Below are positions 29,041-32,397 of a stretch of 64,000 nucleotides of DNA, piece by piece. The number at the start of each line of letters is the position of its first letter. The first letter of the stretch is position 1. The notes beneath the pieces are model-generated. The model searched no databases. It saw only the letters and a list, made by a program, of their open reading frames with translations, and was not told the DNA's origin. The position numbers were made by a program, and so were the translations under genes. The DNA is from an uncultured beta proteobacterium (GTDB lineage Bacteria > Pseudomonadota > Gammaproteobacteria > Burkholderiales > SG8-39), in the NCBI GenBank assembly GCA_903928055.1, contig CAIYPG010000056.1, positions 3,917-67,916 of the forward strand, in the 5' to 3' direction.

Positions 29041-30063
29041 ATGCTTTCCCCCAACCTCGAATCCTTCATCCGCGCCCTGCCCAAGGCAGAGCTGCACCTG
29101 CACATCGAAGGCTCGCTCGAACCGGGGATGGTGTTTGAACTGGCCCGGAAGCACGGCGTCACACTGAAATACCCGACGGTGGAGGCGCTGCGCGCCGCCT
29201 ACGATTTCAGCGACCTGCAATCCTTCCTAGACATCTATTACGCCGGTGCCGATGTGCTGCGCGATGCCGATGATTTTCATGCCATGACCATGGCCTACCT
29301 GCGCCGTGCGCATGCCGACGGGGTCATGCATTCTGAAATCTTCTTCGACCCGCAAACACACACCGACCGCGGCATCGCCATGGGCACCGTGATCGATGGC
29401 ATCACCCGCGCATTGGACGACGCGAAGCGCGAATTCGGCCTGTCCTCGCGGTTGATCCTGTGCTTCCTGCGCCATCTCAGCGAGGAAGCCGCCCTGCAGA
29501 CACTCGAACAGGCGCTGCCTTACCGTGACCGCATTGTCGCGGTGGGCCTCGACTCCTCGGAACGCGGCCACCCGCCCGAGAAGTTCTCCCGCGTCTTCGC
29601 AAAAGCGCGCGAACTTGGCTTTCTCACTGTGGCGCATGCCGGCGAAGAAGGCCCGGCCGCCTACATCCGCACGGCGCTGGACGAACTGAAGGTGTCACGC
29701 ATCGACCATGGCGTGCGCTGCGAGGAAGACCCCGCCCTGGTGCGACGCCTTGCCGCGGAACAGATACCGCTGACCGTATGCCCGCTGTCCAATACGCGGC
29801 TCAAGGTATTCTCCCGGATGGCCGACCACAACATCGGCCGCCTGCTGGAACAGGGCCTGTGCGTCACCGTCAATTCCGACGACCCGGCCTATTTCGGCGG
29901 ATACGTGCTGGCGAACTACCTTGCCGTGGCAGAGGCCCTGTCGCTGTCGCGGGCACAGATTGCACAGCTGGCACGCAATTCCATCACCGCGTCATTCCTC
30001 GACGAGCCGTCGAAGCAGCACTGGCTGTCGCGGCTCGATGCAATCGCAAGCGCGGCATCATGA
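29041..30063 (+). CDS. add: adenosine/adenine deaminase (ADA superfamily, adenine-deaminase-like subgroup)
   Basis: [16 protein letters not shown]...[10 protein letters not shown]...[12 protein letters not shown]...TVHAGEEG...RIDHG...[12 protein letters not shown]. Confidence 0.9.
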
Positions 30064-31082
30064 ACGCTCCCCCCACGCCAGATCCGGTACTGAGGGACGA
30101 CTGGCATCCGGTGGCCATGTCCGCAGCACTGGAACCGGGGGCCATCACGAGCGCGAAATTGCTCGGCATGGAACTGGCGCTCTGGCGCGGCAGCGATGGC
30201 GTGGTGCATGCCTGGGAGGACCGCTGCCCGCATCGCGGCACGCGCCTGTCCGTGGGCCGTTTTGTCGGCGATGGCATCGTCTGCGCCTATCACGGCTGGC
30301 GCTTCGAGGCCGACGGCCATTGCAGCAGCATCCCCGCCCTGCCCGCGTTCACGCCGCCGGCCAAAGCCTGTGCCACGGCATTCAAGGCCGTCGAACGTTA
30401 CGGTCTCGTCTGGGTGTGCCTCGGCAACCCGGCTTGCGACGTGCTGCCCTTTCCGGAATACGACGACCCGCATCTGCGCAAGGTGGTCTGCGGGCCCTAC
30501 GATGTCGCAAGCAGCGGCCCGCGCATCATCGAGAACTTCCTCGACATGGCGCATTTCGGCTACGTGCACCCCGGCATTCTCGGCGATCTGCAGCACACGG
30601 TGGTACCTGACTACGAAGTGGGTCCCTGGGATGACGGCACCGGCCACATCGGCATTCTGGCCACGCAGTGCTTTGCCTGGCAGCCGCAGACAAACACTCT
30701 GGCGGACGGCGGCAGCGACGTCGAATACACCTATCGCGTCGTCCGCCCGCTTACCGCCATCCTGACCAAGTTTCCCAGGGCACAGCCGGATTTCCGCGAA
30801 GCGATCAGCCTGCACGTGCAGCCGCTCGGCGAGGAGACGAGCCGGGCGTGGATCATCCTCGCGATGACAAATTTCCTGCAGGCCGAGGAGGATTTGCGCG
30901 CCTTTCAGGACCGGATATTCCTGCAGGACAAACCCATTGTGGAAAACCAGGTGCCGCTCCGTCTGCCGCTCACCAAGCAGGGAGAGGGCGCCGAACTTTC
31001 CATGCGCTGCGACCGCATGTCCGAGGCTTACCGCCGCTACCTCAGCCGGCGCAAGCTGCGTTTCGGCGTGATTGTGGAATAG
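30060..31082 (+). CDS. Rieske [2Fe-2S] non-haem-iron oxygenase, VanA/NdmA-like single-component alpha subunit
   Basis: ATG at 30060 overlaps the add stop (ATGA). Rieske motif [25 protein letters not shown]; mononuclear iron motif [15 protein letters not shown]; 340 aa. Confidence 0.85.
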
Positions 31083-31089
31083 GCACGGC

Positions 31090-32397
31090 ATGGCTGCCCC
31101 CGCACCATTGCAGGCCTTTCGAGGCGAGTTGCTGTCTTTCAGCAACGATCCGCGCAAGGATGCCGACGGAGTGCACCACATCGAAGACGGCCTGCTCGTC
31201 GTTGCCGACGGACTGATCGAACGCAGCGGTACCGCGGCGGAACTGCTGCCGACCTTGCCCGCAGGAACACCGGTGACAGATTGCCGCGGCAGGCTGCTCA
31301 TGCCCGGCTTCATTGACGCGCACATCCATTATCCGCAGACCGACATCATTGCCAGCCACGGCCGGCAGTTGCTCGACTGGCTGAACGACTACACCTTCCC
31401 CGCTGAAGCGGCGTTCAGCAGCGCTGCACACGGCGAGGCCGTCGCGGAATTCTTCCTGGACGAATTGCTGCGCAACGGCACCACCACGGCGGCGGTTTAT
31501 GCCACGGTCCATCGCCAGTCGGCCGATGCGTTCTTCGCCGCGTCCGAACGACGTGGCCTGCGCATGATCTGCGGCAAGGTCATGATGGACCGCAACTGCC
31601 CGGAGTTCCTGCGCGACACTGCCGCCTCCTCCTACGAGGACTCGGCCGCACTGATCGAACGCTGGCATGGCCGCGACCGCCTGCTGTATGCCGTGACCCC
31701 GCGCTTTGCCTGCACCTCCACCGAAGAGCAACTGAGATTCGCCGGCAGGCTGCTGGACGAACATCCGGGCGTGCTGCTGCAGACCCATATCGCCGAGAAC
31801 GTGGACGAGATCCGCTGGGTGGCCGAACTGTTCCCCTGGAGCAAAAGCTATCTCGACGTCTACGACCATTTCGGCCTGGTGCGTCGCGGGGCACTGTACG
31901 GACATTGCATCCATTTTGACGACATCGACTGGAAACGCATGGCCGCAACCGGTACTGCGGCGGTGCACTGCCCGACCTCGAACCTGTTTCTCGGCAGCGG
32001 GCTGTTCGATTACGACCGCGCACATGCCGCCGGTGCCGCAGTGGCGCTGGCCACCGATGTCGGCGGTGGGACATCCTTCAGCATGCTGCGCACCATGCAC
32101 GAGGCCTACAAGGTGGCGCAGATGGGACGACACACCTTCACGGCACTCGACGCCTTCTATCTTGCGACCCTCGGTGGTGCACGATCGCTGGGACTCGATG
32201 ATCGCATCGGCAGCTTCGCCCCCGGCCGCGAGGCCGACTTCATCGTTCTCGATCCGCAAGCCACACCGCTGCTTGAGCGGCGCATGGAGCGGACACGAAC
32301 GCTGGACGAGAAACTTTTCGTGCTGATGATGCTGGGTGATGATCGGGCCGTGGCCCAGACTTACATCGGCGGTGCGGCAGCACTTTCCGCCCGTTGA
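31090..32397 (+). CDS. guaD: guanine deaminase (amidohydrolase superfamily)
   Basis: MAAPAPLQAFRGELLSFSNDP...LMPGFIDAHIHYPQTDIIAS...LQTHIAEN...HCPTSNLFLGSG...TDVGGG. Confidence 0.9.
   Translation: MAAPAPLQAFRGELLSFSNDPRKDADGVHHIEDGLLVVADGLIERSGTAAELLPTLPAGTPVTDCRGRLLMPGFIDAHIHYPQTDIIASHGRQLLDWLNDYTFPAEAAFSSAAHGEAVAEFFLDELLRNGTTTAAVYATVHRQSADAFFAASERRGLRMICGKVMMDRNCPEFLRDTAASSYEDSAALIERWHGRDRLLYAVTPRFACTSTEEQLRFAGRLLDEHPGVLLQTHIAENVDEIRWVAELFPWSKSYLDVYDHFGLVRRGALYGHCIHFDDIDWKRMAATGTAAVHCPTSNLFLGSGLFDYDRAHAAGAAVALATDVGGGTSFSMLRTMHEAYKVAQMGRHTFTALDAFYLATLGGARSLGLDDRIGSFAPGREADFIVLDPQATPLLERRMERTRTLDEKLFVLMMLGDDRAVAQTYIGGAAALSAR

Follow-up and report, generated by a model that had tools for sequence, protein, structure and literature searches.

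What does an oxygenase contribute to bacterial purine catabolism, a pathway usually regarded as solved? The question is raised by a stretch of 64,000 nucleotides from an uncultured betaproteobacterium of the lineage SG8-39 (contig CAIYPG010000056.1; hereafter, the window), in which a gene for a Rieske oxygenase lies between add and guaD, two genes of purine deamination (Table 1). The protein is very probably a monooxygenase that acts on a purine base in purine catabolism. The conservation of this oxygenase in an operon with which betaproteobacteria of fresh water and soil import and deaminate purine bases points to an undescribed step of purine breakdown.

The three-gene unit and its oxygenase

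The three genes form one translationally coupled unit, as the original prediction, a note made from the letters of the window alone, had proposed with coordinates and motifs that all proved right. The ATG of the Rieske gene (30060-30062) overlaps the TGA of add (30061-30063) in an ATGA at 30060-30063, and its stop codon, TAG at 31080-31082, is separated by 7 nt from the guaD ATG at 31090. Fifteen contigs from lake and freshwater metagenomes encode an identical Rieske protein, and their independent gene calls gave the same three genes and the same junctions. In a lake metagenome variant of the locus (L088, 3031-4376) the Rieske protein is also identical and guaD is split into two open reading frames (ORFs) of 229 and 206 aa, through either a frameshift or an assembly error. 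The only runs that contain the Rieske sequence are DNA runs of lake and freshwater metagenomes, and they bring no RNA support for co-transcription. A scan of the region 23.5-33.0 kb for promoter and terminator consensus sequences gave counts not above those of shuffled sequence. No xanthine (NMT1) riboswitch was found in the window at the gathering score, between 23.4 and 33.0 kb at E values up to 5, or in eight representative loci.

The best PDB match of the add product is 3ou8 (Pa0148; E = 1.6e-120), which we take to be an adenine (base) deaminase, and the best other adenosine deaminase entry reaches 5e-41. On this comparison, adenosine deaminase was rejected and the product is predicted to be an adenine deaminase of the Pa0148 type within the adenosine deaminase superfamily. 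The earlier label of adenine/adenosine deaminase is thereby narrowed to the base.

The Rieske protein matches the Pfam families Rieske (PF00355, 76.7 bits) and VanA_C (PF19112, 63.2 bits) and has all cofactor ligands of an intact single-subunit oxygenase of the VanA-like class, the class to which it had been assigned. The [2Fe-2S] cluster ligands are C56, H58, C75 and H78 (C56-P-H58-R-G and C75-A-Y-H78-G-W), which satisfies the motif CXH...CXXH. The second motif reads E158-NFLDMAH165FGYVH170PG, and alignment to SxtT, GxtA, NdmA/B and HpxD identifies H165, H170 and D290 as iron ligands and D162 as the bridging aspartate. Since all these ligands are invariant in 80 orthologues, likewise F282, F287, Q208, Y223 and K237, the gene appears to encode a functional oxygenase under purifying selection. 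In the helix that matches the regiospecificity helix of NdmA/B (F282-Q283-D-R-I286-F287-L-Q-D290), the positions of NdmA N282/F286 (N1) and NdmB Q289/L293 (N3) are held by a mixed pair, Q283/F287; all orthologues have F287, and at least 95% of them have Q283. Active-site residues were mapped by alignment only, as the loops of the iron site have a low predicted local distance difference test score in the structure model. The template modelling (TM) score of this model is 0.83-0.87 against the alpha3 enzymes GxtA and SxtT (Foldseek) and 0.75 against NdmA/B. No gene for a small (beta) subunit adjoins the Rieske gene in the window. Sequence and model together suggest a VanA-like alpha subunit that forms a homotrimer without a beta subunit and serves as oxygenase component of a Rieske monooxygenase; the oligomer states of the alpha3 oxygenases GxtA and SxtT are given in PMC12445004.

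SxtT and GxtA are also the best matches among solved structures (E = 1e-62, 35-36% identity), followed by NdmA/B (28-31% identity) and then by DdmC, GdmA and KshA. HpxD, as annotated on plasmids of Pantoea and Acinetobacter, is homologous over the full length (36% identity, E = 1e-52). The characterized relatives at 29-36% identity (SxtT/GxtA, HpxD and NdmA/B) all act on purine skeletons. The original prediction had named NdmA and NdmB as relatives, which they are in structure (TM = 0.75, 28-29% identity), and had suggested a phylogeny. The neighbour-joining tree of 105 sequences sets HpxD, Ndm, Sxt and the window clade apart as four separate groups, with poorly resolved deep branching. By patristic distance, SxtT is the nearest known enzyme in 50 of the 60 bootstraps, and SxtT/GxtA cluster with cyanobacterial sequences. 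The two HpxD sequences pair in 60/60 bootstraps and never join the window clade. Membership of the window protein in the HpxD, Ndm or Sxt clades was rejected on this tree and on the identities of 28-36%. Databases hold only generic names for such proteins, including 20 representatives of related 50%-identity clusters, and NCBIfam has no model for the window clade or for HpxD. A literature search for a Rieske enzyme together with 8-oxoguanine deaminase, isoguanine, methylpurines or guanine deaminase found nothing on the window clade.

Conservation of the purine setting

The setting of the gene was studied in 82 loci, made up of 80 orthologue loci from a scan of one genome per species, Sulfuriferula nivalis and the window; neighbours were counted on the same strand within 350 bp. 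Because the sample is rich in Duganella species, raw locus counts exceed the number of independent events. The carriers are Burkholderiales metagenome-assembled genomes, Derxia, Noviherbaspirillum, Herminiimonas, Duganella, Massilia and Sulfuriferula, and a few Gammaproteobacteria (Alkalilimnicola, Hydrocarboniphaga). The window protein is 52-76% identical to the 80 aligned orthologues.

On its 5' side, the Rieske gene adjoins a gene for an AtzT-like binding protein (46 loci), an adenine deaminase (24), a deaminase of the cytidine deaminase (CDA) fold (3) or a guanine deaminase (2), with a median gap of 2 nt. The 3' neighbour is a CDA-fold deaminase in 27 loci, an 8-oxoguanine deaminase in 16, a guanine deaminase (GuaD) in 14, an adenine deaminase in 3 and another gene in 18, the contig ending in the remaining 4; a purine deaminase thus follows directly in 60 of the 78 scorable loci. 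The junction with the deaminase gene is a 4-nt overlap in 40/59 cases, irrespective of the type of deaminase. With its recurrence in 82 loci and these overlaps, the neighbourhood is beyond chance. An ATP-binding cassette (ABC) ATPase of the importer is present in 50/82 loci, and of the 63 fully flanked loci, 19, the window among them, have xdh at a distance of up to about 8-10 kb, while the other 44 have none nearby. What stays most constant is the guanine/adenine-binding protein on the 5' side and, on the 3' side, a deaminase, which can have any one of three folds. In Duganella the unit consists of a Tsx-like outer-membrane protein, the binding protein, the Rieske protein and a CDA deaminase, beside a GntR regulator, and relatives also have a porin or Tsx-like outer-membrane protein 5' of the binding-protein gene. 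In 45 loci (L047, 6046-6909, and 44 others) this position is taken by a conserved gene whose product, some 287 aa long, has a signal peptide, ends in Phe and has no Pfam match at E < 1e-5; it is probably a purine channel of the outer membrane, similar to Tsx. Absence of the arrangement from relatives had been named as a finding that would refute the original prediction. The purine context is in fact kept across the 82 loci, which does not refute it; add and guaD are not the specific constant partners.

The binding protein of the window has AtzT (6pi5, E = 9.5e-128) and a Brucella protein (3s99, E = 2.8e-112) as its best PDB matches. AtzT co-purifies with guanine (dissociation constant, KD, 0.11 µM) and binds adenine with a KD of 2.5 µM and no GTP, and 3s99 carries adenine (PMC6834077). 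By analogy, the window protein is predicted to bind guanine and adenine, and because of these two matches the importer would carry purine bases; nucleoside uptake by this system of the BMP family was rejected on the same matches and their base ligands.

Several lines of evidence converge on a purine base as the substrate: the AtzT-like binding protein (46) or adenine deaminase (24) on the 5' side and the purine deaminase on the 3' side (60/78), the downstream overlaps together with the affinity of AtzT for guanine and adenine, and the purine clusters in which sister clades of 45-54% identity sit. The purine skeletons on which the characterized relatives act argue for the same, as do the regiospecificity positions of NdmA/NdmB, which correspond to the conserved Q283/F287.

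The more distant relatives suggest a functional boundary near 45-50% identity, because their contexts change there. At 54%, the locus L089 has genes for an outer-membrane protein, a binding protein, the Rieske protein and 8-oxoguanine deaminase, adjoined by those for urate oxidase, 5-hydroxyisourate hydrolase, 2-oxo-4-hydroxy-4-carboxy-5-ureidoimidazoline decarboxylase, allantoicase and ureidoglycolate lyase; xdh is absent from its 17 kb and no allantoinase was seen. A Rieske gene is found with guaD and allantoicase in L094 (50%), and in L092 (48%) an alphaproteobacterial binding protein and Rieske gene go with guaD. In L093 (47-51%) the Rieske gene overlaps by 4 nt the gene for the molybdenum (Mo) subunit of an XdhA-type hydroxylase. 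This contig (Logan contig SRR25057008_414049, 60-6768) encodes a corrinoid protein, an MtmB-family methyltransferase, the three-subunit Mo hydroxylase and the Rieske protein, and is an unusual mixture of methyl-transfer, Mo-hydroxylase and O2-dependent genes. In L090 (45%; JGI 3300045419 contig, 5776-13750) a tandem pair of Rieske genes is accompanied by a VanB-type reductase gene in divergent orientation and by a BMP ABC system; the two Rieske genes share a 4-nt overlap, and their products have 35% and 45% identity to the window protein. The locus looks like the purine-type oxygenase system of an alphaproteobacterium, with two regiospecific subunits. A relative at 46% (L091) lies in a LigAB/PrpF aromatic cluster, and a Caballeronia homologue at 44% has no purine context.

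Possible reactions

Tentatively, the reaction that we favor is the oxidative N-dealkylation (N-demethylation) of modified purine bases. A reductase or ferredoxin encoded elsewhere would supply electrons from NAD(P)H to the Rieske cluster, and D162 would relay them to the iron of the neighbouring subunit. At this iron O2 would be activated, and one oxygen atom would enter a purine base that the AtzT-like binding protein has brought in. The methyl carbon of N-methylated bases from nucleic-acid debris would thereby be hydroxylated and released as formaldehyde, the candidate substrates being N6-methyladenine, 7-, 1- or N2-methylguanine, or the methylxanthines formed from these bases. Once demethylated, the base (adenine, guanine or xanthine) would proceed through the co-translated deaminases to xanthine dehydrogenase and urate oxidase, and the enzyme, along with the 8-oxoguanine and CDA-fold deaminases, would be a device for channelling non-canonical purines into the main pathway.

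Xanthine dehydrogenase hydroxylates purines at C2 and C8, and N-demethylation is preferred over ring hydroxylation because this enzyme repeatedly co-occurs with the Rieske gene (19/63). The overlap with the Mo hydroxylase gene in L093, which represents an independent lineage, likewise suggests that the two enzymes are complementary. Besides HpxD, the two nearest characterized families oxidize sp3 C-H bonds. The absence of a private reductase would suit an accessory enzyme rather than one of the main flux: HpxD, which together with HpxE is the molybdenum-independent hypoxanthine/xanthine hydroxylase of Klebsiella and carries the main flux, has its reductase adjoining. N-demethylation is also the sole reading that is redundant with nothing at any locus.

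Several points weigh against it. Methylated purines are a small share of the purines available, and the central place of the gene in the minimal Duganella operon, coupled to a deaminase, would better fit a main-flux step. No gene for formaldehyde detoxification was seen in the loci, and the identity to NdmA/B is merely 28-31%. HpxD is a precedent for purine-ring hydroxylation in the superfamily, and in the 44/63 fully flanked loci without a nearby xdh the enzyme could stand in for xanthine dehydrogenase. AtzT, the homologue of the binding protein, was characterized with guanine and adenine, not with methylated bases (PMC6834077). The substrate assignments are predictions from sequence comparison. 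The earlier suggestion that modified purines are demethylated or hydroxylated is consistent with the conserved purine context, but demethylation is only one of two near-equal readings.

The second of these, a possibility that ranks after N-demethylation, is a molybdenum-free hydroxylation of the purine ring, a function like that of HpxD. In one variant hypoxanthine and xanthine would be converted to xanthine and urate, so that binding protein, deaminase and Rieske enzyme would make up a guanine-to-urate module; in another, aminopurines would be hydroxylated (C8 of guanine, C2 or C8 of adenine), and the mutagenic products would at once be turned into urate or xanthine by the co-translated 8-oxoguanine or CDA-fold deaminase. 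Full-length homology to HpxD, annotated as a Mo-cofactor-independent xanthine hydroxylase, is consistent with this, yet the window protein falls outside the HpxD clade and an HpxE-type reductase is never present in the 82 loci. The 44/63 loci without xdh within about 8-10 kb also argue for it, as does L089, which combines deaminases, the urate pathway down to ureidoglycolate lyase, uptake genes and the Rieske gene with no xdh. Nevertheless, in about 30% of the loci, the window included, the reaction would duplicate the xanthine dehydrogenase of the same cluster, L093 even couples its Rieske gene to that of a Mo hydroxylase, and the second variant would be redundant with GuaD plus xanthine dehydrogenase. 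The two commonest 3' partners (43 loci) are homologous to enzymes of hydroxylated aminopurines, namely 8-oxoguanine deaminase and the Msd-like CDA-fold enzymes. However, the CDA-fold neighbour matches Msd and the Bacillus guanine deaminase about equally well, and 8-oxoguanine deaminase also occurs in purine clusters without a Rieske gene (Pseudomonas aeruginosa PA0142). The tight translational coupling would be sensible if the intermediate were mutagenic, and stoichiometric coupling to deaminases would suit a main-flux step. In support of such chemistry, work of the Breaker laboratory has hpxDE oxidize hypoxanthine to xanthine and xanthine to urate (PMC7373994).

An extension of the aminopurine variant seems unlikely. 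According to it, guanine C8 and adenine C2 are hydroxylated and 8-oxoguanine and isoguanine are obligatory intermediates, not merely damage products. The 8-oxoguanine and Msd-like deaminases would then serve a Mo-independent route to xanthine and urate by hydroxylation followed by deamination, in which the 4-nt overlaps would prevent the build-up of a mutagenic intermediate.

Slightly more doubtful still is a purine-like substrate other than a base: an N-alkylated s-triazine or ammeline derivative, a pterin, a cytokinin-type N6-substituted adenine, or C1' of a nucleoside, whose oxidation would release the base. The ligands of AtzT also include ammeline (0.36 µM) and 2-hydroxyatrazine (2.2 µM), but it refuses GTP, and nucleosides are not among the compounds listed (PMC6834077). 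The Ndm relatives do perform N-dealkylation, the window has a gene for BiuH and a second ABC system at 41.6-45.9 kb, and the cluster encodes no nucleosidase or phosphorylase. On the other hand, the adjoining adenine deaminase is of the base-specific Pa0148 type, no ribonolactone or ribonate genes were seen, and the carriers from pristine lakes and soils, with their strict tie to adenine and guanine deaminases and the urate pathway, speak for natural purines.

Electron supply and chance association

No reductase gene was found within about 8 kb in any of the 82 loci with VanB-like and NdmD-like tblastn probes, although such single-probe searches may overlook very divergent genes of the ferredoxin-NADP reductase (FNR) type; the NdmD-like probe matched only the Rieske domains of the oxygenase genes themselves. 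This agrees with the original prediction, which saw no reductase adjoining the Rieske gene and placed the sole VanB-type Fe-S domain of the window in a truncated gene at 3825. The probes find that remnant at 3828-4085, about 26 kb from the Rieske gene, as the only VanB-like sequence of the 64 kb. It is 52% identical to residues 231-316 of a VanB-type reductase, retains all four Cys and lacks the FNR part; a truncated gene and a small ferredoxin are the two possible readings, and the remnant is probably not the partner of the Rieske protein. On the minus strand (3828-4256), it lies after the terminator-like hairpin of a short-chain dehydrogenase/reductase (SDR) gene, with an 18-nt tandem direct repeat (caccaacaaagcctttgt/cg) in front of it.

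One proposal for the electron supply, which could be combined with any of the chemistries, is that xanthine dehydrogenase, with its FAD and two [2Fe-2S] clusters, feeds the Rieske enzyme, in such a way that oxidation of one purine funds the oxygenation of another. The lack of a VanB/FNR-type reductase within about 8 kb of all 82 loci, the shared cluster with xdh in 19/63 and the gene order of L093 (FAD subunit, Fe-S subunit, Mo subunit and, with the 4-nt overlap, Rieske) are in its favor. Yet most loci, including all those of the Duganella type, have no xdh nearby, an ordinary VanB-type reductase adjoins the Rieske genes of the sister clade in L090, and no electron path of this kind is known. 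SxtT and GxtA, moreover, reportedly have no dedicated reductase and work with a surrogate VanB in vitro. All in all, the proposal is improbable.

It is even less probable that the protein is an ordinary aromatic-acid O-demethylase (VanA/LigX-like) in a purine cluster by chance: the VanA_C domain, the 46% homologue in the aromatic cluster of L091 and the 44% Caballeronia homologue without purine context would allow it, but 82 loci share the purine neighbourhood, with start and stop codons that overlap, four sister clades have it too, and the sequence match to the O-demethylase DdmC is confined to the Rieske domain.

Purine island and surrounding genes

The unit belongs to a purine island whose features are listed in Table 1.

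Table 1 Features of the purine island and the reductase remnant in the window
Feature	Coordinates	Strand	Evidence and remarks
VanB-type reductase remnant, C-terminal plant-type [2Fe-2S] domain, 86 aa	3828..4085	-	tblastn
Outer-membrane porin (Porin_4)	22438..23595	-	PF13609, 118 bits; adjoins uptake genes, membership in the system uncertain
ABC transporter ATPase, two ABC_tran domains	24085..25644	+	PF00005 (twice)
ABC permease 1	25641..26765	+	ORF and start refinement; start overlaps ATPase stop
ABC permease 2	26762..27688	+	PF02653, 128.8 bits
Periplasmic BMP-family binding protein, AtzT-like	27755..28837	+	Pfam Bmp, 173.5 bits
add, predicted adenine deaminase, 340 aa	29041..30063	+	NF006850, 549 bits; PDB 3ou8, E = 1.6e-120
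Rieske oxygenase gene, 340 aa	30060..31082	+	alpha subunit only; uncharacterized clade
guaD, guanine deaminase of the amidohydrolase type	31090..32397	+	TIGR02967, 599 bits; NF006679, 665 bits
PuuD-type membrane urate oxidase with cytochrome c domain	32491..33693	-	Urate_ox_N, 432 bits
XdhC, xanthine dehydrogenase maturation factor	33695..34828	-	TIGR02964, 277.5 bits
XdhB, molybdopterin subunit of xanthine dehydrogenase	34839..37226	-	TIGR02965, 1248 bits
XdhA, Fe-S/FAD subunit of xanthine dehydrogenase	37133..38644	-	TIGR02963, 644 bits
8-oxoguanine deaminase homologue	38867..40282	+	NF006055 equivalog, 635 bits (cut-off 532); divergent from xdhA
CDA-fold purine-base deaminase, 159 aa	40272..40751	+	Pfam dCMP_cyt_deam_1; overlaps stop of 8-oxoguanine deaminase gene

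In Sulfuriferula (L001) the gene at the position of ABC permease 1 belongs to BPD_transp_2. The genes for PuuD and for XdhC, XdhB and XdhA are convergent with guaD. The start of PuuD was refined to GTG 33693, in agreement with metagenome gene calls of 400 aa, and that of XdhA is probably ATG 38644, as the long ORF matches TIGR02963 only from residue 86 onward. The base deaminases of the island number four, namely the products of add and guaD and the 8-oxoguanine and CDA-fold enzymes; the CDA-fold protein matches 8wlw/5xko (E of about 1e-16) and 1wkq (8e-15) and is either Msd-like or like the Bacillus GuaD.

Beyond the island, a second ABC system on the minus strand (41587-45918), with an ATPase and two BPD_transp_2 permeases, is interleaved with a biuret amidohydrolase gene (BiuH equivalog, 43176-43910, minus strand, 415 bits against a cut-off of 370). 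By their annotation, these genes suggest a scavenging of nitrogen from biuret, cyanuric acid or triazine-type compounds beside the purine island. On the 5' side, positions 1-22100 hold genes for CoA-transferase III, acyl-CoA dehydrogenase, SDR, thiolase-like, MmgE/PrpD and TctC-receptor proteins, and appear to be a catabolic region for organic acids or CoA esters that has no relation to the Rieske gene.

Significance

What is new here is a distinct uncharacterized clade of a known kind of enzyme in an unusual conserved setting, without a reductase and translationally coupled to a deaminase. An intact and strongly conserved oxygenase sits in a core purine operon of at least 80 species under generic database names only. 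If it were a demethylase, it would let modified purines, for instance methylated bases from the turnover of DNA and RNA, enter catabolism by a new route, with a bearing on nitrogen cycling in lakes and soils. If it were a ring hydroxylase, it would be a second, molybdenum-free route round xanthine dehydrogenase, which would be relevant in molybdenum-poor fresh waters. The systematic absence of a reductase gene poses the separate question of the electron source.

Its substrate would also assign a function to the closest non-cyanobacterial relatives of SxtT/GxtA, and a function in purine catabolism would suggest that SxtT and GxtA were recruited from there. The branch of HpxD, Ndm, Sxt and the window clade would then be one of oxygenases of the purine skeleton.

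Comparison with known systems

A grouping of similar composition has been described in the regulon of the NMT1 (xanthine) riboswitch of Proteobacteria, where Rieske genes named hcaE occur with amidohydrolases like guanine or 8-oxoguanine deaminase and with purine transporters (PMC7373994). Both are uncharacterized Rieske genes grouped with deaminase-like amidohydrolases; unlike that regulon, the window and the eight representative loci have no NMT1 motif.

HpxD resembles the window clade as a single-subunit VanA-like protein of about 340 aa that belongs to purine catabolism and has the same cofactor motifs, and its active-site helix is similar (FNQRVFEED against FQDRIFLQD in the window). In both hpxDE loci examined (Pantoea, Acinetobacter), the gene for HpxE, a PDR/VanB-type reductase, lies directly 3' of hpxD, whereas none does so in the 82 loci of the window clade. 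These two loci are also without an adjoining binding protein, deaminase or xdh, while the window clade is often found beside xdhABC.

NdmA and NdmB, the methylxanthine N1- and N3-demethylases of Pseudomonas putida CBB5, share with the window protein the fold and, as predicted for it, a planar purine substrate and a monooxygenase chemistry that would suit modified purines. At the specificity positions the pair is mixed, Q283 corresponding to NdmB Q289 and F287 to NdmA F286. In contrast to the window clade, Ndm clusters are not tied to adenine or guanine deaminases and include the reductase NdmD and the glutathione S-transferase NdmE, neither of which occurs at the loci of the clade. The standard for true Ndm orthology in this comparison was an NdmB orthologue (71% identity) on a clinical IncFIB/IncHI1B plasmid of Klebsiella pneumoniae (L084, NZ_LN824134.1, 34603-41257). 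There an Ndm-like cluster lies between insertion sequence elements and encodes this Rieske protein, an NdmD-like reductase of 585 aa, a glutathione S-transferase and a 2-oxoglutarate oxygenase; matches of this type are also present on several K. pneumoniae and Pseudomonas plasmids.

SxtT and GxtA form a separate clade of cyanobacterial secondary metabolism, and the window has no sxt context. Their selectivity residues 255/276, presumably M255/T276 in SxtT and Y255/V276 in GxtA, align to I265/I286, so that the selectivity pair is not kept, and Y273/I277 of their helix are replaced by Q283/F287. The sxt gene cluster, like the loci of the window clade, is not known to contain a dedicated reductase. 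SxtT and GxtA have the same length as the window protein and the same alpha3 type, and their substrate is a reduced purine skeleton with guanidine groups.

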